Positions 14,702 through 24,297 of a stretch of DNA of 64,000 nucleotides are shown here, in pieces; the stretch's first letter is position 1; each line of letters begins with the position of its first letter. The notes beneath the pieces were generated by a model. The model ran no database searches. It saw nothing but the letters and a program-made list of their open reading frames with translations, and was not told the origin of the DNA. A program made the translations under genes and the position numbers. This DNA is from an uncultured Desulfobacter sp. (GTDB taxonomy: Bacteria; Desulfobacterota; Desulfobacteria; Desulfobacterales; Desulfobacteraceae). Location: contig OY762069.1 of assembly GCA_963665095.1 (NCBI GenBank), positions 1,952,001 to 2,016,000 of the forward strand, given 5' to 3'.

Positions 14702-15080
14702 TTAAATAGGCGTTTTCTGGAGGTCTCGGACATATACGGATACCGGTTTATTCCATCCTTTGACCATGATTGGGGCATCACAAGGCAGGATGGATAATAC
14801 TCCGGGGTCCTGTTTCAGGTTGGAAATGGTCTGCTGGGAAATGATCATGGCCACATCCAGGTCCCGGGTTTTTGCCTGGAGGCGTGAGGCCAGGTTCACC
14901 GTGTCCCCCACCAGAAGGTATGAGAGCCGGTTGGGGCTGCCGATATTGGCGGCCAGGACCTGGCCTGTGTGGATGCCGATGCCGTGGGAGAGGCTGGGAA
15001 GCTGTTTTTCTTTGAACCTTTTGTTGAGTTCAGCAAGGCGAGATTCCATATCCAGGGCGGCACTCACCGCATTGGACGCA
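14702..15080 (-). pseudogene. Class III adenylate/guanylate cyclase, 3' part (continues at 19498-19560)
   Basis: GIGIHTG, GDTVNLASRL; joins FLGDEIYAVFGAPVSDPRDA across the transposon. Confidence 0.85.
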
Positions 15081-15155
15081 TGTAGATTCCCGAAATAATC
15101 TGAACAAAAACCCGCCAAATTTTTCATATTAAATTGACAAAGTTCCATTTTTCTC

Positions 15156-16465
15156 CAGTAGTGTCCGGTTAGGTTGTTGCATATAAAAAATATCTAAAAT
15201 TATTCAAAAAACGTCATTTTTATGTTGACAAATGTGCGTAAAAATTTTTGCGCGCCTTGAAAAATTTTATCAAGGAGCCCAAATGACGCGCATTTCAATT
15301 ACCAAAGCCATAATATCGTCCCTGAATTTTGACAAGTTCCGTAACCCTCTGATAAGGTCGCTTCCACAAGCACCAGAATTGCAATCTCGAGGAGACCGAC
15401 CTTTAAAAATGACATTCGAAGACCAGATAAATGCCCTGATTTATTTTCATCTGCAGGAACACAAATCAGCCCGGCATTTAGTCCAAGATCTCAAGGAAAA
15501 TATTTTTGCCAAAGAACATATTGCTCCGGAAGGCGGTATCAGCCGCAGCAGCTTTTGTGAAGCAGTCAACCACCGAGGGCTTGAACAACTGCAATTTGTC
15601 TTCGAAGATCTTTATAAACAGGCTGTTGGGTGCCTGCCAAAGGAGCATGCCGAGTTGGGCGATCTGGTTTCCATTGACGGCAGCCTTATAAATGCCGTCC
15701 TTTCAATGCATTGGGCAAACTACAGGAAAGGAAGTAAAAAAGCCAAAGCGCATTGCGGATTTGACATAAATCACGGCATTCCAAACAAAATATTCCTGAC
15801 AGAAGGCAACGGCGGGGAGCGCCCTTTTGTCCCAAAGATACTTACCGAGGGGCAAACAGGTGTTATGGACCGTGGCTATCAATCACATCACGATTTTGAC
15901 TTGCTACAGGCACAAGGCAAGCATTTTGTTTGCCGTATAAAAGCCAAAACAACCAGAACGGTAATTGAGACTCACGAGGTCAACTATGGCAGCTACATTT
16001 TCTATGATGCTCTGGTCTTCCTTGGCACTCCGAACCTGAACCAGACAAAAACTCCCGTCCGGGTTGTTGGCTATAAAATTGCCGGCGTGAAATACTATGT
16101 AGCAACTGACAGGCATGATTTAACGGCAGAGCAAATAGCAACCATATATAAGCTCCGGTGGACCATTGAAGATTTTTTCAAATGGTGGAAAGGACACCTG
16201 AAAGTTTACCACCTCATTGCCCGCAGCGAATATGGCCTTATGGTGCAAATCCTTAGCGGCCTCATCACGTATCTGTTGCTTGCAATCTACTGTCGAAACG
16301 AGTTTAATGAAAAGGTTACTATTAAAAGGGTTCGGCAGTTACGAACAGCCATCTTGAATGATCTGATTGAGAGCAACAATGATGCTTTTCACGGTTCAAA
16401 CAGAGACAATATTGTCAAAGATCAAAAAATTACTGAGCAAGCAAAAACCTAACCGGACACTACTG
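15156..16465 (+). mobile_element. IS4 family element
   Basis: Perfect 20-bp IR CAGTAGTGTCCGGTTAGGTT; 9-bp duplication ATTTTTCTC (15147-15155, 16466-16474). Confidence 0.95.
15283..16452 (+). CDS. IS4 family transposase
   Basis: IDGS, MDRGY, YKLRWTIEDFFK (YREK); AAGGAG RBS. Confidence 0.92.
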   Translation: MTRISITKAIISSLNFDKFRNPLIRSLPQAPELQSRGDRPLKMTFEDQINALIYFHLQEHKSARHLVQDLKENIFAKEHIAPEGGISRSSFCEAVNHRGLEQLQFVFEDLYKQAVGCLPKEHAELGDLVSIDGSLINAVLSMHWANYRKGSKKAKAHCGFDINHGIPNKIFLTEGNGGERPFVPKILTEGQTGVMDRGYQSHHDFDLLQAQGKHFVCRIKAKTTRTVIETHEVNYGSYIFYDALVFLGTPNLNQTKTPVRVVGYKIAGVKYYVATDRHDLTAEQIATIYKLRWTIEDFFKWWKGHLKVYHLIARSEYGLMVQILSGLITYLLLAIYCRNEFNEKVTIKRVRQLRTAILNDLIESNNDAFHGSNRDNIVKDQKITEQAKT

Positions 16466-16591
16466 ATTTTTCTCAAATTATCCTGTACAGGTTCTGATCA
16501 AAGCATTCTGACAAAAATGAAAAGGGCGAAAAGCTTTGCAGAGCCTCGCCCTTAAGACCGGGATTTATAAAATCCCAAAACAACCATAAAA

Positions 16592-17038
16592 ATGATAATA
16601 AAGGTCAAAGCTGATATCAAGCAAATTTTCAAGCAGGGCAAAAATTTTACATGGCCAAAACCGTCACGATGTCCACATTGCAACGACTCCAGGCTGTGGG
16701 GACACGGCTTTGTACTCTCCTTTTTTGATGGATTTGATCAAGGGGTGTATTTGAAGCGATATCGCTGCCCCTATTGCAAAACCGTATTCAAATTGAAGCC
16801 ATATGGTTTTTTCAAGAGGTTCCAGGCCAGTATCTGGCAAATCCTTACCAGCATTATGAGTCGTCTATACACAGACCGGTATCTGCCGGAACTCTCCTGG
16901 AGTCGACAGCATTTTTGGTTTACTGCATTGAAACGAAATATAGCGGCCTACCTGTCCAACAGTTGGGACAAAGGTGTGGTTGCTGGTTTTATCAAGCTAA
17001 TCGGTATGGGTAAAATCCCGGTTACCAGTTCAATTTAA
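16592..17038 (+). CDS. Transposon accessory Zn-ribbon protein (DUF6431-like)
   Basis: CPHC..LWGHG...RYRCPYC. Confidence 0.7.
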   Translation: MIIKVKADIKQIFKQGKNFTWPKPSRCPHCNDSRLWGHGFVLSFFDGFDQGVYLKRYRCPYCKTVFKLKPYGFFKRFQASIWQILTSIMSRLYTDRYLPELSWSRQHFWFTALKRNIAAYLSNSWDKGVVAGFIKLIGMGKIPVTSSI

Positions 17039-17141
17039 CCATGGGGCTGGATCAGGTTTAAACCACCCTACCGAAGGCTGTGATTTACCGAAGGATCATA
17101 CTGTCATACAAGCCCTTAGAACCAAATTTTAAGGAGGAAGT

Positions 17142-18398
17142 ATGACAGAAAATCAGAAAAAAGAGGTTGCCGTGTTCAGGTTTGGGGTCATTTGTGAATT
17201 TGTGACCGGAATAAATTTTGATTACGGTGAAAAAGAACGAATTTTACAGCAGAAGTGCGCCCGCAAATGGTCCATCCCGTATTCTGGAAGGACCAGGCTT
17301 TCCAGAAGTACGATTCTGGGATGGGTCCGGCAGTATAACGGTCGAATAGAGTCTCTTTACCCCAAAGACCGTTCAGACCAGGGAAAATCAAGGGTATTCG
17401 ATGACGAGACTGCATCTCAACTAATCAAACTCCGGTTAGACCAGCCTGATGCGACAGTCGATACATTGATCTGTTCACTTCAAAAAACTACATGCCAGAC
17501 ATACAGTCCATCCAGTGTATACCGTTTTTTACGCGGCCGGGGGCTAATGAACACGGCCCGGCCAGAGGATAGAAGAAAGTTTGAAGCCCCGCACCCCAAT
17601 GATATGTGGCAAAGCGACGTCATGCACGGCCCTACAGTCCTGGTTCAGGATAAGCAAAGAAAAACGTACCTGATTGCCATTATGGACGATCATTCCAGGC
17701 TGGTTACGGCTGCAGGTTTTTATTTATCTGAGAATCTGAAGACCTATCTTATGGTGCTGGAGCAGGCTTTTTTGAGCCGTGGGCTTCCCCGCAAGCTGTA
17801 TGTAGATAACGGTCCTGCGTTCAGATCCCATCATTTAAAATATGTAGCAGCGTCTCTGTCCATCGCTTTAATCCATGCAAGGCCATATAAGCCCCAGGGG
17901 AAAGGTAAAATCGAGCGCTGGTTCAGAACGGTTCGGCTTCAGTTTCTGCAAAGATTTACAGGTAAGACCCTGGATGATCTGAATGGGGCATTTGAGAAGT
18001 GGCTTCATAATGAGTACCATCAGCGTAAACACAGCTCCACAGGCGAATCACCGTTTAAAAGATTTACCTCGGCCATGGAGTGCATCCGTACCGCCCCACC
18101 GGATCTGAAAGACCACTTCCGCAAAACCGCCCGGCGCAAGGTGGCAAAGGACCGAACCATCACCCTTGACGGCAACATGTTTGAGGCCCCGGTTGCGCTG
18201 ATCGGCAGACATGTGGATGTAAAGTACCATGAGGACACCCCTTTGCAGGCTGAAGTTATCTATAAAGCAAAGTCTTATGGCTTGTTAACCCCGGTGGACC
18301 TTGCTGTGAACTGTCGGGTCAAGCGGCACCGCTGGAACGAAAATGATATCCGGATTATGCCTGAACCCTCAAATTACAAGGGAGGGCAACTGTTATGA
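17142..18398 (+). CDS. DDE integrase/transposase (IS481/Mu-like)
   Basis: WQSD, DDHSR, LYVDNG, PQGKGKIERWF. Confidence 0.92.
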   Translation: MTENQKKEVAVFRFGVICEFVTGINFDYGEKERILQQKCARKWSIPYSGRTRLSRSTILGWVRQYNGRIESLYPKDRSDQGKSRVFDDETASQLIKLRLDQPDATVDTLICSLQKTTCQTYSPSSVYRFLRGRGLMNTARPEDRRKFEAPHPNDMWQSDVMHGPTVLVQDKQRKTYLIAIMDDHSRLVTAAGFYLSENLKTYLMVLEQAFLSRGLPRKLYVDNGPAFRSHHLKYVAASLSIALIHARPYKPQGKGKIERWFRTVRLQFLQRFTGKTLDDLNGAFEKWLHNEYHQRKHSSTGESPFKRFTSAMECIRTAPPDLKDHFRKTARRKVAKDRTITLDGNMFEAPVALIGRHVDVKYHEDTPLQAEVIYKAKSYGLLTPVDLAVNCRVKRHRWNENDIRIMPEPSNYKGGQLL

Positions 18399-19204
18399 GT
18401 GAAATGTATCGTACCTTTTTTGGCTTATATAGGGAGGCCTTCCCGGCGCAGATAGAAATCAATGATATCCTGGTCACCCCGGAGGTCTCGGGCGTTAAAA
18501 ATCGGATTGATTATTCCTTAAGACTTGGCTGCAGTGCGGTTATCACAGGGGATGTGGGCAGCGGAAAGTCCACCGCCTTAAGGTATGCCGCCTCATCCCT
18601 ACACCCTTCGGAATACAAAGTCTTTTATGTTACGGCCTCAAGCGGTTCCATCATGGAACTTTACCGGCAGATTGTTGAAGAACTGGGCATAGAGCGGACA
18701 TCGACGTCCCGCGCTGTTATGATCTCCATTATTAAAAATGAAATACGTGAATTCGTCCTGGGAAAAAAGATCAAAACCGTTTTGATTATAGATGAGGCAT
18801 CTCTGCTTCGCATGGAAGTCTTTGCCGAACTTCACACCCTGGTTCAATTTGAAAAAGACGCCATGCCCTGGCTGCCTGTGATCCTTGCAGGTCAGCCGAC
18901 ATTGATAGATAAGCTTCAGTACCGGACGTCAATCCCGTTTGCATCCAGGATTGTGGCTAAAAGCCATCTGGATGGTCTGGATGTGGCTGGAATGAAAACT
19001 TACCTGATCCATCATTTAAAACTATGCGGCGTTGACACCAACTTTTTTTCTGACCAGGCGGTGACTGCGATTCATCAAGGCTCCGGCGGCCTTTTACGAA
19101 AGGCGAATAATCTTGCCAGAGGCTCATTGATTGCTGCTGCGGCAGAAAAATCAATGACGGTATCTGCAGAGCATGTCCGCATTGCTTCATCGGAGATTTT
19201 TTAA
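18395..19204 (+). CDS. ExeA/TniB-like AAA+ ATPase
   Basis: GDVGSGKS, LIIDEA; ATGA overlap with transposase. Confidence 0.88.
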   Translation: MSEMYRTFFGLYREAFPAQIEINDILVTPEVSGVKNRIDYSLRLGCSAVITGDVGSGKSTALRYAASSLHPSEYKVFYVTASSGSIMELYRQIVEELGIERTSTSRAVMISIIKNEIREFVLGKKIKTVLIIDEASLLRMEVFAELHTLVQFEKDAMPWLPVILAGQPTLIDKLQYRTSIPFASRIVAKSHLDGLDVAGMKTYLIHHLKLCGVDTNFFSDQAVTAIHQGSGGLLRKANNLARGSLIAAAAEKSMTVSAEHVRIASSEIF

Positions 19205-19240
19205 GAAAAAACAGCCATAGAGCAGAATATTACGATTTCG

Positions 19241-19409
19241 GTGAAACGGAGCCGGGCTCTGCTGAGGAGCAACCTGGTAAGGGATAGCCGGAAGCAGGCA
19301 GCATTGAATAATGCGCCAGGGGAAGTGGGGATTACCTGCTTCCCCTTTCTGCTTTATTCAAGCTGTTCTGCCTATGCCTTAAAAACCTACTGAGAAGGAG
19401 CGCAGCGAC
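19241..19409 (+). ncRNA. Candidate structured RNA/DNA element, copy A
   Basis: Conserved with 23655-23830; two stem-loops; no ORF start. Confidence 0.5.
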
Positions 19410-19497
19410 TTCTGTAGCTGTCTTAAATAATATGGAAAAGATTTAATCTGTTCAAAATAATTAGAAAATTTAAGTCAGGATAAAATGCGACTCAACA

Positions 19498-19560
19498 ACG
19501 CATCCCTGGGGTCAGACACAGGTGCGCCAAATACCGCATAAATTTCATCACCTAAGAATT
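19498..19560 (-). pseudogene. Cyclase middle fragment
   Basis: FLGDEIYAVFGAPVSDPRDA. Confidence 0.8.
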
Positions 19561-20032
19561 ATATTACCGCAAAAAAGCTTCATGAAATGCTTTCACAAAA
19601 AGGTCTGATTGGAGACCCGCCCATCCATTACAATACACTGCTGTGTATCGTTAAAGAAGAGCAGTTACTGGCTTTCGGGAACAAACGCCGGGATGTGCGG
19701 ACCAGCTTTGAAACCGATCATGTCAACTGCCTTTGGATCGGCGATTTCATGCATGGTCCCCTGGTGACTATAAACCGGAAAATGCACAAGGCCATATTAT
19801 GTGCGATTATAGATGACCACAGCCGGATGATTGTGGGACACGCCTTTGCCTCCACAGAGACAGTCCTTTCCCTGACCCTGGTATTGAAAGATGCCTTTCT
19901 GGCTTTTGGATTTCCGGAACGTCTTTATGTGGACAATGGAGCATCTTTCAGCTCTGATTTTCTGGCCAAAACCTGCGCCTTGTCCGGCATATCACTGATT
20001 CACTCCAAACCCTATGATTCACCTTCCCGAGG
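19561..20032 (+). pseudogene. Internal fragment of a third IS481/Mu-like transposase
   Basis: WIGDFMHGP, DDHSR, LYVDNG, KPYDSPSRG; stops before the KIER motif. Confidence 0.8.
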
Positions 20033-20312
20033 TTATGGAAAGTTAGCTGTTATGTAAAGTTGAATAGAAAGAGCTGCTTGGGATATAGGCGACAGCATTG
20101 AGTTACTTTTCATAATAATCCGATCTAATTTTAGGTGATTAACCCAAAATAGATAGGAGATTATGAAATGGAAACAAAACAATTACCGGCGTCAGAGCTA
20201 TTCAAGCTCAGTAAACATCCTGGCCCTGAGGGCCAGGCTTTGGACTGCCCCTAAAAGGGGCTTAGTATGCCTTGCCTCCTGAGGAGGCAAGGACGGTTGT
20301 CCCCACCGTTTA

Positions 20313-20372
20313 TTATTTATTGAACAAATCTCTTTGTTCGGCTCTTCTCTCTTTATTCTCTTGGTGCTTTAC
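20313..20372 (-). pseudogene. tnpA: IS200 TnpA C-terminus (VKHQENKERRAEQRDLFNK*)
   Basis: In frame with 23914-24297 after removing transposon B. Confidence 0.85.
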
Positions 20373-20510
20373 TGAGAATGATCACAAAAAATCATGGAAA
20401 AATTAAAGATAATTTGCAAGATATGCCAGGGATGAGGCAGAAGCTCCCCCGTTTATCTCGCAAATAATCAATGGAACTTCTGCCCCTATTACCCTAACAG
20501 GGCAGGAGAT

Positions 20511-21086
20511 ATGCTATCAGAACTTATTAAAAACAAAAATCTTTTTTTCCATCTTTACGAAATCGATAAAAATACAGCAAAACAGTACAGACAGTTGCCT
20601 TGTCCGCATTGTGGAGGCCCCTTATATTTCAGCAATTACATGCGCAAGCCCCGGGGAGAGCCTGAGGGCGTGCCGGAGGAATTCTTTATTCAGTTCAGCC
20701 TATGTTGTGGAACCGAAGGGTGTCGCAAAAGATTGATGCCGCCGTCCTGCCGTTTTCTGGGGAGAAAAGTCTACTGGTTTGCAGTTATTCTGTGTGTTTT
20801 AACAGACTGGCAAAATACCAATGAAAAAATCACCGTTTATGATTTGTCCATACGAACTGGCATTAGCCGGAACACAATAAACCGCTGGCTTGCCTTTTTT
20901 CAGGATACATTTCCAGTGAGCCGAACCTGGCGAAGGCTTCGGGGGCAGATATCCGCTGGTGTCAGTAACAGCCGTCTGCCGTCAAGTTTCATCAATTATT
21001 GCCGGGCGGTGAAATCCAACGCCGAAAACGCACTTGTATCAAGCCTGATAATCTTATCAGGCGGGTCCAAAATCAGGGCCGGATAA
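20511..21086 (+). CDS. Transposon accessory Zn-ribbon/HTH protein
   Basis: CPHCGG, CC...CRKR, GISRNTINRW. Confidence 0.7.
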   Translation: MLSELIKNKNLFFHLYEIDKNTAKQYRQLPCPHCGGPLYFSNYMRKPRGEPEGVPEEFFIQFSLCCGTEGCRKRLMPPSCRFLGRKVYWFAVILCVLTDWQNTNEKITVYDLSIRTGISRNTINRWLAFFQDTFPVSRTWRRLRGQISAGVSNSRLPSSFINYCRAVKSNAENALVSSLIILSGGSKIRAG

Positions 21087-21192
21087 TCTCGCGCAGAGGA
21101 TGAACATAGACAAATATATGCAGGCTGTTTTACCACCTGATTTCAGACGTTGATCCGAAATTTTAACCTGAAATTAAAAAGGAGCCTGATTT

Positions 21193-22638
21193 ATGAGTGG
21201 TAAAACACAGCACCCGGCAGACCTGTGGGCATTATTTCGCTTTTCGGTTATCGGCGGTTTACTGGCACGCCCTCCGGCAAAGGGAGAGTTGCAAAATGAA
21301 CTGACCCGGCTCGCAGGTCAAATCTATTCTCATCCTGTGACGAACAAACCGACCTGTTTTCATTTTTCCACAATTGAGGCCTGGTATTACAGGGCAAAAA
21401 ATTGCCAGGACCCAATTCTGGCTCTGGGCCGTAAAGTTCGTTCAGATATGGGCAAATCCACAGCATTGAATGCTGAATTGATCCGCCTTCTTGGTGTCCA
21501 GTACAACACTTATCCGCAATGGAGCTATCAGCTTCATTGCGACAACCTGGCAGCTGAAATCGCTGAACAGGGCCTGTGTGAGAATCCGCCGTCCTATGCA
21601 AGTGTGAGAAGGCGTATGGTTGAACGGGGTTGGAGAAAAAAGGCTTCCAAGAACAAAAATCAAACATCCGGACAGAAATCAGCTTTTAAGCGATTAGAAA
21701 CGTATGAAGTCCGTAGTTATGAAACCGAAAACATCCATGAATTATGGCATCTGGACTTTCACGAATGCAGCAGGCGCGTGGTGGACGAAAAAGGTCAGTG
21801 GCATACGCCCAAGGCATTGTGCATTCTTGATGATCGCTCCCGTCTGTGTTGTCATATTCAATGGTATTTGAATGAAACGGCAGAGGTTTTGATCCACGGC
21901 TTGTCCCAGGCGTTTTACAAAAGAGGGCTTCCCAGAGCCTTGATGACAGATAATGGTTCTGCCATGATTGCTCATGAAACCGGCAACGGACTTAAACGAT
22001 TGGGCGTCAGTCATGAGACCACGTTGCCATACTCGCCCTATCAAAATGGGAAGCAGGAAGCCTTTTGGGGTACACTTGAAGGCCGTTTGATCGCCATGCT
22101 GAGCCGGATGGATTCTTTGACCCTGGTATATTTAAATCAGGTCTCCCAGGCCTGGATCGAGATGGAATACAACAAGTCAACCCATGATGAAATTCATATG
22201 TCGCCATTGCAATGCGCCCTTGACGGCAAGGATGTGTCACGTCCTGCACCGGAACCTGAACAGCTTCAATTTTCGTTTACAGCCTGTGAATCCAGAAAAC
22301 AGCGTCTGTCCGATGGTACCATCTCTTTGATGGGCATCCGGTTTGAAATCCCTTCACGGTTTAATCATATCCAGCGTCTTCATGTCTGTTTTTGCTCCTG
22401 GGATAAATCGGTTGCCTGGCTGATAGATAAACGAACCGGAAATAAGCTTGCCGCAATTTATCCCCAGGACAAGACAAAGAATGCTTCAGCAATCCGTCGT
22501 ATCAAATCCACTCCGGATGAAATTAACCCTGGCCATGAAACCCTGTCCGGATCAGAACCGGCCCTGCTTAAAAAGCTCTTGTCCGATTATGCAGCAACCG
22601 GAATGCCTTGTGCCTACTTGCCAATGGAGGAAAAGTGA
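21193..22638 (+). CDS. DDE integrase/transposase (IS481/Mu-like)
   Basis: WHLD, DDRSR, MTDNG, PYQNGKQE. Confidence 0.92.
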   Translation: MSGKTQHPADLWALFRFSVIGGLLARPPAKGELQNELTRLAGQIYSHPVTNKPTCFHFSTIEAWYYRAKNCQDPILALGRKVRSDMGKSTALNAELIRLLGVQYNTYPQWSYQLHCDNLAAEIAEQGLCENPPSYASVRRRMVERGWRKKASKNKNQTSGQKSAFKRLETYEVRSYETENIHELWHLDFHECSRRVVDEKGQWHTPKALCILDDRSRLCCHIQWYLNETAEVLIHGLSQAFYKRGLPRALMTDNGSAMIAHETGNGLKRLGVSHETTLPYSPYQNGKQEAFWGTLEGRLIAMLSRMDSLTLVYLNQVSQAWIEMEYNKSTHDEIHMSPLQCALDGKDVSRPAPEPEQLQFSFTACESRKQRLSDGTISLMGIRFEIPSRFNHIQRLHVCFCSWDKSVAWLIDKRTGNKLAAIYPQDKTKNASAIRRIKSTPDEINPGHETLSGSEPALLKKLLSDYAATGMPCAYLPMEEK

Positions 22639-23462
22639 TGAACAGCAAACGATTATTGGCTTATTATGGATTGAAGTACAATCCTTTTTTACCAAATATT
22701 CCTGTGGACTCATTATGGCATCCACCCCGGATGGAGGCATTTATTACACGCCTTGAAAATATGACCATGAACGGTGGATTTGCATTAATCGCCGGTGAAC
22801 CCGGTCTTGGCAAATCCAAGACACTACAGGCGATTGCCCATCAGCTTGGCAAGCTTGATGAAGTCGTTGTCGGCGTTATGGAGCGCCCCCAAAGCAGCGT
22901 GGCCGATTTCTATCGGGAAATGGGGACACTGTTTGGTGTCAATTTGAGTCCGGCCAACCGTTACGGAGGGTTCAAAGATCTGCGGCAACGATGGAAAAAT
23001 CATATTAAAACAACCCTGTTCAGACCCGTCCTGCTCATTGATGAGGCTCAGGAAATGCTTACCGGATGCCTGAATGAGCTTCGGTTGCTCAACAGTATGG
23101 ATTTTGACTCCCAGAATTTATTGACCACCATTATCTGTGGTGATACCCGGCTGCCGGAACGGTTCAGAACCAGTGCATTGGTAGCCCTGGGGAGTCGACT
23201 CCGGTTCCGGTTAAAATTGGATCCTTATACCCGGGAAGAATTGTTGGATTATATAGCGCATTGCCTAAATCAGGCCGGAGCTCCTCAACTCATGACAAAA
23301 CCTTTAATCACCGCTTTGGTAGAGCACTGTACAGGAAACTTACGGGTCCTCAATAATATGTCGGCAGAACTGCTTGAAGTGGGCGTTCAAAGAGAGCTGC
23401 CGCAACTGGATGAGAAACTTTTCATAGAGCTTTTTTCACTGAAACCGTCGCCAACCAGATAA
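22638..23462 (+). CDS. ExeA/TniB-like AAA+ ATPase
   Basis: GEPGLGKS, LLIDEAQ; TGATG coupling, GGAGG RBS. Confidence 0.88.
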   Translation: MNSKRLLAYYGLKYNPFLPNIPVDSLWHPPRMEAFITRLENMTMNGGFALIAGEPGLGKSKTLQAIAHQLGKLDEVVVGVMERPQSSVADFYREMGTLFGVNLSPANRYGGFKDLRQRWKNHIKTTLFRPVLLIDEAQEMLTGCLNELRLLNSMDFDSQNLLTTIICGDTRLPERFRTSALVALGSRLRFRLKLDPYTREELLDYIAHCLNQAGAPQLMTKPLITALVEHCTGNLRVLNNMSAELLEVGVQRELPQLDEKLFIELFSLKPSPTR

Positions 23463-23473
23463 GAGGTATAAAA

Positions 23474-23716
23474 ATGACAATCAATGAAACACAACTTGAA
23501 AAAACAATGGCTGAAATTGTCGACGAGCTGGGCAATCTGGTCATGGAGTTGATCCTTGTCAGTTTAAAAAAAATAAACTCGGAAAATCATCTTTTGACAG
23601 AATTGCTGGAGATCAAACAAGAGGAACAAAGAGAAAATGAATTTTATGGTTTTGGTGAAACGGAGCCGGGACATCCTGGGGAGGAAACCCGGCAAGGGAT
23701 AGCCAAAAGCAGGTAG
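23474..23716 (+). CDS. Small acidic hypothetical protein in transposon B
   Basis: GAGGT RBS right after the ATPase stop; 80 aa. Confidence 0.5.
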   Translation: MTINETQLEKTMAEIVDELGNLVMELILVSLKKINSENHLLTELLEIKQEEQRENEFYGFGETEPGHPGEETRQGIAKSR

Positions 23717-23830
23717 CATTGAATAATGCGCCGGGGGAAGCGGGGTTGACCTGCTTCCCCTTTCTGTATTATTCAAGCTTTCCTGCTCATGCCTTAAAAA
23801 ACCCAATAAAATCAGTCGGAGCGCAGCGAC
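23655..23830 (+). ncRNA. Candidate structured RNA/DNA element, copy B
   Basis: Conserved with 19241-19409; substitutions keep pairing. Confidence 0.5.
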
Positions 23831-23913
23831 ATCTGCTAATCATTGAAAATACAGTTATGCCTTTCCCTGATTTATCCTGATTGTCGCTCCATTGATTATC
23901 GTGCTTCCTCTCA

Positions 23914-24297
23914 CTTTACATATTTTCTAATCATCTCAGAATCCAAACCAACTGTATCGACACAATACCCTCGTGCCCAAAATTTGTTACCCCAATAGGG
24001 CTTAGACTTCAGCTGCCTGAATTTACTGAACACCCTTATTGCAGTTCTGCCCTTCAGAGTCCCAACGTAATCTGATATCGACCCCTTCGGTGGAACCATT
24101 GCGAGCAAATGAACGTGATCTGTTTGCACATTCAGTTCCATAACCTGGCACCCCTTCTGCTCCGAAAAGGCTCTGATACAGTTTCCCACCTCATGCCCTA
24201 CTTCCCCTGTTAGTATCCGAAATCTATATTTCGGAACCCATACGATATGGTACTGACAATGCCATATCGTTTGTGATAATTTCTGAAATCGGCTCAT
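23914..24297 (-). pseudogene. tnpA: IS200/IS605 Y1 transposase, N-terminal part
   Basis: YHIVWVPKYR, DHVH (HUH), FWARGY, IRKYV. Confidence 0.92.

Follow-up and report, generated by a model that had tools for sequence, protein, structure and literature searches.

Near their right ends, two neighbouring insertion elements of an uncultured Desulfobacter sp. carry almost the same non-coding module, which raises the question of what this module is and what it does for elements whose proteins are only distantly related. Both lie in a stretch of 64,000 nucleotides (nt) that was analysed as a whole (the window; contig OY762069.1, positions 1,952,001 to 2,016,000): element A, a three-gene ExeA-type insertion element, at 15081–19497 and element B, also of the ExeA type, at 20373–23913, both on the + strand. 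The initial annotation of the window had reported that the two copies align closely while their hosts differ, and this was borne out. The copies are 80.6% identical across 186 nt, whereas the proteins of A and B share 30% (ORF1, the first open reading frame), 29% (transposase) and 22% (ATPase) identity, the ends read TG...CA versus TGAGA...TCTCA, and the target duplications measure 4–5 versus 3–7 bp. The aligned stretch ends 88 bp (A) and 83 bp (B) inside the right end, within the 80–90 bp first given. Our analysis gives good support to a new two-part system of RNA and docking site; that this system substitutes for a primase is about an even bet.

The conserved unit begins at ~19236 in A and ~23650 in B, and its core ends at 19388 and 23804 respectively. 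The limits drawn originally needed revision, and the closing GGAGCGCAGCGAC hairpin is only clade-specific and lies 3' of the conserved core. The module is a cassette of ~160 nt, composed of an RNA of ~110 nt up to a terminator-like hairpin and a tail of ~35 nt. From 5' to 3', the RNA part contains P1, GAAACGGAG, P2, P3 (with a GNNN loop), AGGGAU, P1', a purine-rich strand, P6 and a U tract; in the tail follow the partner strand of P4, two free bases, ATGCCT, three free bases, AAAA and a triplet that pairs with the P3 loop. The RNA can pair with the tail at three places. Its purine-rich strand folds first as a hairpin, P5, and P6 is a GC-rich hairpin; both form when truncated transcripts of A and B are folded. 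In copy A the predicted short RNA spans 19236–19355 (+), with P1 at 19236–42/19287–93, the junction J1/2 (GAAACGGAG) at 19243–51, then P2, the P3 loop at 19264–67, AGGGAT at 19280–85, the tail-pairing strand (alternatively hairpin P5) from 19294, the terminator-like P6 at 19318–46 and the U tract at 19347–55. The tail of A, its putative docking site, covers 19354–19388 (+) and comprises the P4 partner, ATGCCT (19374–79), a linker with the A run and the triplet CCT (19386–88). Copy B has the same anatomy at 23650–23770 (+), with a TCC/GGA variant of P3 and P6 at ~23734–61, and its tail (23767–23804, +) holds ATGCCT at 23789–94 and the pseudoknot triplet CCC at 23802–04. A C(GNA)G mini-hairpin is found 3' of each tail (19397–19409 in A, a DNA-type fold, and 23818–23830 in B, both +). 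The short 5' stem and long hairpin of the initial annotation are part of this fold, and A and B fold far more stably than shuffled sequences (z of −4.4 and −5.0); P1, the loop–tail pseudoknot, the terminator-like hairpin and P5 had been missed.

Covariation was scored on 92 sequences against a home-made, tree-aware null. Nine pairs exceed every null maximum (P1, two; P2, three; P3, one; and the complete loop–triplet interaction, three), which supports three helices and a 3-bp pseudoknot between loop and tail. Across 78 aligned sequences pairing is kept in 95.0% of cells, compared with at most 45.9% when the alignment is slid, and double changes number 364 versus 99.9 ± 10.1 in shuffles. G–T wobbles in P4 are polar (209 versus 20). 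Two further search patterns that left other positions free confirmed the conservation, and the bases of junctions and internal loops are near-invariant. A short GAG/CUC pairing across P2 was discarded, since GGAG stays while CUC varies. The view of the module as a structured nucleic acid carried by transposons is upheld by this covariation and by the database search proposed at the outset: with the Rfam 15 covariance models, no match in the window reached a family threshold (no riboswitch, ribozyme, HEARO or Weinberg motif), and a further 6 + 20 loci gave weak, unrelated matches only (E up to 5). No Rfam match backs the likenesses that were considered to c-di-AMP, c-di-GMP, twister, HDV and hairpin RNAs. 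Coding had also been set aside at the outset. In B an 80-codon open reading frame of unknown function (23474–23716, +) does enter the module, but most of the other copies have none of this kind. Its homologues lie 5' of the module in relatives of A and 5' of a primase gene in locus L506, and a search of the atlas with its 80-residue product gave nothing above 0.9. The ATG of the tail was dismissed as a start codon, because a stop follows at codon 3 in 68 of 178 cases and the ATG is absent from 26 of 204.

Is the 5' part transcribed as a separate RNA? A −10 box was scored just 5' of P1 with a hand-set matrix. It is present in 86% of 21 copies divergent from the transposase and in 44% of 41 convergent ones, whereas only 13% of the 61 copies that lie 3' of the transposase operon, as in A and B, have one (control, 5% of 955). 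The box thus appears to be present where the RNA would need its own promoter and mostly absent where it would follow the operon. Copy A has no clear −10 box of its own, and its RNA would probably form the 3' end of the transcript from the operon. A predicted stop at P6 agrees with the sequence around this hairpin: in 177 cases the U tract 3' of P6 averages 4.7 of 8 nt, compared with 1.7 A before it, and a terminator scan of the window called P6 a terminator. At the right end of A, a promoter-like site (9/12) on the − strand (19455–19427) faces back over the module; it overlaps subterminal repeats and may be due to chance.

The tail also exists without the RNA. Genomes G593 and G595 contain 14 and 26 tail matches, respectively, versus 5 and 9 recognisable RNA cores, and eight loci fetched from them have two outward-pointing (inverted) tails with no RNA core between. 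Several of these tail pairs lie inside ISL3-like ends (so named because they resemble the ends of ISL3-flanked copies), and one such element (L597) is ~220 bp long with an 8-bp duplication. The pairing positions are conserved across 27 orphan tails, whose linkers vary. Each of these tails has its best pairing partner among the RNAs of its own genome, a partner that beats at least 98% of the 204 RNAs, and in 24 of the 27 the best-pairing RNA also matches the pseudoknot triplet, a fit that is partly built in because the search patterns were made from known tails. A −10 box was found at none of 25 orphan tails versus 11 of 12 RNA genes. Tails kept in mini-elements that have neither an RNA gene nor a −10 box imply action in trans. 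Inverted copies of the tail also occur 33–72 nt upstream of the RNA start at 9 of 19 transposase-free loci and 11 of 59 loci with short flanks, and at none of the transposase-flanked copies; the likeness spans the P4 partner through the triplet and ends there. In the genome of the window (G000), no docking site was found besides the tails of the A and B modules. The C(GNA)G mini-hairpin follows the tail on the same strand in 57 of 202 cases versus 7 antisense (control, 25 of 376). Hairpins of this type are unusually stable in DNA and are found at priming sites including ssiA, according to the part of the literature consulted (PMC13037366).

These observations bear on whether the module acts as RNA at all. 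RNA and single-stranded DNA are indistinguishable by covariation, and conserved motifs of this kind may be single-stranded DNA (PMC5737381, consulted in part); the whole module could fold as single-stranded DNA and serve in cis as an ssi-like signal to a host primase, with RNA not involved. The GNA hairpin would fit, as would the mutual exclusion with primase genes described below. We nevertheless consider this very improbable, as the occurrence of the −10 box matches where transcription would be needed, the terminator-like hairpin splits the unit in two, and tails without the 5' domain retain all three pairing segments.

Which elements carry the module? The core pattern returned at least 123 stretches from genome contigs, and with the two relaxed patterns the tail was present in 69 of 86 and 88 of 107 copies that had enough downstream DNA. 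After copies without a recognisable tail were left out, 242 were kept, 204 once near-duplicates had been removed. These at least 204 distinct copies come from many phyla, including Planctomycetota, Desulfobacterota, Bacteroidota and Acidobacteriota. Most (126) lie within 450 nt of a match to a transposase or ATPase query, and their hosts are ExeA-type elements (43, a share that partly reflects direct fetching of such loci) and the insertion sequence (IS) families IS3 (23), IS21 (18), ISL3 (16), IS110 (13), the zinc variant of IS256 (8), ISNCY (2), rve transposases of no assigned family (2) and ISAs1 (1). The other 78 comprise 19 copies with no transposase or ATPase match nearby and 59 with short flanks; Pfam searches of their nearest reading frames added further IS256, IS110, IS21 and rve matches and single IS630, ISAzo13, IS200-type and IS66 genes. 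Judging from the end sequences, we regard the IS630, ISAzo13, IS200-type, ISAs1 and IS66 genes near single copies as neighbours. Comparisons of multi-copy elements place the module inside the mobile unit. Where in the element it lies, and which way it points, varies freely across host families, and a tree of 123 modules requires 30 changes of IS family, compared with a minimum of 6 (the alignment is short and the bootstrap did not converge). At two loci (L099 and L113) the module lies on the opposite strand at the very start of istB, apparently between istA and istB; at L122/L123 two inverted IS3 copies stand ~1 kb apart, the module of each pointing into its own transposase. Among phage records there was no match to the module, three patterns gave 0, 0 and 1 matches in viral contigs, and the single match among plasmid records adjoins an IS110 gene.

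This distribution argues against the partnership with the Zn-ribbon protein and the ATPase that the initial annotation had proposed. If the module were a scaffold or guide RNA that serves only the zinc-ribbon/DDE/ExeA proteins, this would account for the ExeA type being the largest host class and for the module always lying 3' of the operon there. However, the module is not a trait of this family. It is present in relatives whose ATPase is 84–89% identical to that of A and absent from most at 55–63%; among relatives of B it is absent at 74–81%, present at 90% or above and again present in several at 47–69%. Being patchy within the family, found beside six other transposase families and devoid of a variable guide segment, it leaves us with next to no credence in a dedicated scaffold. 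A role in targeting, also raised at the outset, is unlikely because the internal-loop bases are near-invariant and the insertion sites of A and B are heterogeneous (judged by eye, with no formal complementarity test).

We likewise give very little credence to the module being a small RNA taken over from a host, a decoy for CsrA or a selfish passenger that contributes nothing to transposition. The two GGA motifs in the junctions would suit a CsrA decoy, and a precedent for a passenger exists in Ssr9, which, in the part of the source consulted, rides an IS110 element without being needed (PMC12288879). In the phylum of the window a covariance-model search found the module in 2 of 151 genomes, hence sporadically, and in G000 it occurs only inside elements (14 copies in A, 13 in B). 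The first GGA is broken in 13 of 92 copies, and a passenger leaves the conserved orphan tails unexplained.

An indication of function comes from what takes the place of the module in related elements. In most B-type relatives without it, a RepB' primase gene (PF16793/PF22448; PDB 3h25, E 3.5e-12) or a DnaG-type primase gene lies 3' of the ATPase gene; examples are the RepB' gene of L217 (2561–3349) and the DnaG-type gene of L524 (3240–5496, split by another IS). Fourteen B-type loci have the module only, 11 have RepB' only, four have neither and none has both, and two of the four carry a DnaG-type gene (L524, Pfam-confirmed, and L523, by similarity). For A-type loci the counts are 26 with the module, one with a primase and 31 with neither; in both sets module-bearing loci are over-sampled owing to the pattern searches. 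In the set examined no locus combines module and primase gene, and 14 primase-bearing loci that were checked had no tail. When 30 B-type ATPases were arranged in a tree, B was nested, with two close relatives, in a clade of 10 RepB' and three RNA rows (SH-aLRT 100); one RepB' row, L223, falls among RNA rows. We read this tree as indicating that the cassette did replace the RepB' primase gene in the lineage of element B. An exchange of ends or modules had been named beforehand as evidence against the original interpretation, and in this form it took place; overall, the observation from which the initial annotation started is confirmed and its interpretation was partly right. Four loci have an AAA_25 gene directly 5' of the module, and for the one AAA_25 protein searched the RSF1010 RepA helicase was the sole PDB match; a RepA-like helicase gene lies in an ExeA-type element at L154 1952–2938. 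In the literature searched we found no earlier description of IncQ-like primase and helicase genes carried by ExeA-type elements. At A-type loci with neither module nor primase (L016–L078) a single short GC-rich hairpin is often present between the ATPase stop codon and the right end, possibly a terminator or a minimal priming signal.

Since the cassette occupies the slot of a primase gene, it may prime the DNA copying needed for movement. We suggest that in copy-out the terminated RNA docks on the tail, then single-stranded, and either serves as primer of the complementary strand or brings one in, and we put the chances of this at even. Slightly short of even we place the wider proposal of a small RNA that acts in place of a protein primase, in a cassette swapped among at least seven unrelated IS families, with mini-elements that hold only docking sites profiting from it in trans. 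The small RNA would either start at a sigma-70-type promoter of its own or form the 3' end of the transcript of the transposase operon, and would stop at P6 and the U tract. Its docking site would be the ~35-nt tail on single-stranded element DNA exposed in copy-out. Pairing would start at the P5 loop, and P5 would open into a 13–18 bp helix of purine-rich RNA and pyrimidine-rich DNA, with AGGGAU and the P3 loop clamping the tail at two more points. Trimming (RNase H is the obvious candidate) would then create a 3' end for a host polymerase, the clamps holding the RNA in place; alternatively, the RNA would recruit the host primase. In either case the RNA would do the job of the RepB' or DnaG-type gene of sister elements. 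What the sequences themselves show is the fold, the division into two parts, tails that lack an RNA gene, exchange among IS families and mutual exclusion with primase genes. Transcription, termination, the tail acting as DNA and priming itself are what we infer here, and the model accounts for the free position and orientation of the module, the need for transcription, the one tail per strand in the parasites and the primase swap. In the part of bioRxiv 2023.06.07.543989 consulted, IS3, IS21, IS256, IS110/IS1111, ISL3 and IS1202 appear among the families that form circles and presumably move by copy-out.

Several points weigh against priming. The AGGGAU/ATGCCT helix is required by the tail filter and, being almost invariant, has no covariation support, and the fit of orphan tails to local RNAs is partly built in by patterns derived from known tails. 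The GNA hairpin is absent at 72% of tails, and intact elements carry one tail only. The set of transposase queries was limited, with IS630, ISAzo13, IS200-type, ISAs1 and IS66 called neighbours from their ends only. Copy-out by ExeA-type elements we infer from their IS21-like layout, and the ISNCY matches are presumably of the IS1202 type. The G000 assembly contains no abutted ends of A or B, and the contigs over the right end of A contain no joints. A processing step must be assumed, because the predicted 3' end of the RNA is not on the hybrid. The 31 A-type loci with neither module nor primase indicate that neither is essential, a common slot may result from a hot spot of recombination, and direct swaps of primase and RNA were seen only about twice.

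Two other uses of the same pairing have to be weighed. In the main rival reading, the short RNA might bind the tail in transcripts, either the element's own read-through or host transcripts that cross the element, and cut, stabilise or anti-terminate them, possibly as a two-piece ribozyme; a tail on each strand would then catch transcripts whichever way the element inserts. The ~35 near-invariant bases, the pseudoknot and the A run do resemble a catalytic or ligand-binding RNA core, G–U wobbles are common, and the full read-through molecule can fold in cis. Such a system leaves the exclusion of primases and the DNA-type hairpin after the tail unexplained, the orphan tails are promoterless, no further target site exists in G000 and no ribozyme family matches, so that we hold it to be unlikely. 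Alternatively, the RNA could bind the DNA tail for another step of transposition: keeping a strand open, bringing the ends together or shielding an intermediate from abortive excision of the IEE type, IEE being known to act on these IS families (bioRxiv 2023.06.07.543989, as far as consulted). The GNA hairpin, the tail-only loci and the promoterless orphan tails fit this equally, and in ISL3-type elements the tail lies 17–40 nt before the end motif (19 cases). In IS3, IS21, IS110 and IS256-type hosts, however, the tail often faces the interior of the element and not its end, and unrelated transposases would all need to use it, which makes such a role distinctly unlikely. Priming thus remains our preferred reading. 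The priming of the second strand of IS circles in copy-out is usually left to host proteins, and an RNA supplied by the element in place of a primase would add a new class to the known replication RNAs. If priming is wrong, there is still an uncatalogued two-part RNA/target system with strong covariation, common to unrelated transposase families and kept by target-only parasites.

The ends and duplications of A and B were read by comparing the flanks of all copies in G000, which holds 14 copies of A and 13 complete and one partial copy of B. The target duplication is 4–5 bp in 13 of 14 copies of A (5 bp at this copy) and 3–7 bp in 12 of 13 complete copies of B (6 bp at this copy). ATGG or CCAT is often present in the duplicated target of the 14 A copies. 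Element A encodes a Cys-rich, zinc-ribbon-like ORF1 of 148 residues (16592–17038, +; no match above cut-off in Pfam and NCBIfam scans), an IS481-like DDE (rve) transposase of 418 residues (17142–18398, +; PF00665; 208.7 bits against NF033577, short of its cut-off of 224) and an ExeA-type AAA+ ATPase of 269 residues (18395–19204, +; PF13401, AAA_22). Element B encodes a Cys-rich ORF1 with a helix-turn-helix (20511–21086, +; ORF list and Pfam), a DDE (rve) transposase of 481 residues (21193–22638, +; PF00665) and an ExeA-type AAA+ ATPase of 275 residues (22635–23462, +; PF13401). DUF6431 occurs in 48–74% of the members of clusters that resemble B ORF1, which is a lead only. Within the left end of A, right after a TTGACA box, an IS4-like element (DDE_Tnp_1, 9-bp duplication) has inserted at 15156–16465; in the remaining 13 copies this end is intact. 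The left end of A cuts an open reading frame on the − strand (14702–15148), which by eye resembles the end of an adenylate/guanylate cyclase; a truncated rve transposase lies in the gap between A and B (19587–20057); and B interrupts the 3' end of an IS200-type Y1 transposase gene (23911–24297, −). A CRISPR-repeat-like sequence, identified by eye, adjoins one B copy (G000 C1 ~3464860–3468400) and the A-type relatives L021 and L035.

How does the module compare with known systems? A full-text search of the literature gave no description of its RNA, although a listing in supplements (e.g. of PMC5737381) or in subscription journals could escape such a search. On plasmid RSF1010 (IncQ), RepB' primes at two inverted 40-nt sites on complementary strands that are exposed by RepA, as described in the part of PMC8567376 consulted. 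The module resembles RepB'/ssiA/ssiB in having a recognition site of ~35–40 nt, a GNA-loop hairpin and a predicted partner acting in trans, and homologues of RepB' and RepA occupy its slot in sister elements. Inverted sites, one on each strand as in ssiA/ssiB, are seen in the gene-less elements, and intact insertion sequences carry one site; no locus has a RepB' gene in the same element as the module, and the predicted partner is a base-pairing RNA instead of a protein, in the context of insertion sequences. RNA II of ColE1 hybridises in cis to the template strand at the plasmid origin and is cut to give a DNA primer. Like it, the module would make a folded, promoter-driven RNA that we propose is cut to a primer; unlike it, this RNA is ~110 nt long, is predicted to pair with a tail of the non-template strand through three separate contacts and can act in trans. 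An own −10 box is found in antisense-oriented copies and mostly absent from tandem ones such as A and B, and the one plasmid match adjoins IS110.

Bridge RNA and seekRNA of IS110/IS1111 serve a single recombinase family and have variable guide loops. They too are structured, IS-encoded RNAs, and the module is likewise predicted to pair with element DNA, but it is independent of family (IS110 accounts for 13 of 126 hosts) and its loops are near-invariant, the match to targets having been judged by eye. The omega RNA of TnpB/IscB (HEARO) has a 3' pseudoknot, and in tracrRNA:crRNA a terminated RNA pairs with a short second strand in segments. The module has a 3'-end pseudoknot and a terminated RNA that pairs with a short second strand in several segments; unlike omega RNA, its tail is not fixed at the element end and it has no Rfam match, and no TnpB, IscB or Cas families occur among the flanking proteins scanned by Pfam (nearest reading frames only). 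A riboswitch was rejected, as the 3' strands of the pseudoknot lie past the terminator-like hairpin and there is no consistent downstream gene. The nearest IS-borne small RNA in the literature compared is Ssr9 of ISPpu9, a module downstream of an IS110 transposase that also occurs without one and is not needed for transposition; in contrast to our module it is limited to one IS family, and the part of the source consulted does not mention a separate docking site (PMC12288879). The IEE primase–polymerase has a priming function that acts on circle-forming IS families, like the one proposed for the module, but is a protein whose gene lies outside the IS and which promotes abortive excision (bioRxiv 2023.06.07.543989, consulted in part). 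The module belongs to neither the bridge RNA, the omega RNA nor the riboswitch class. By analogy, it may work like RepB'/ssi or ColE1 RNA II, yet it is a member of neither group.

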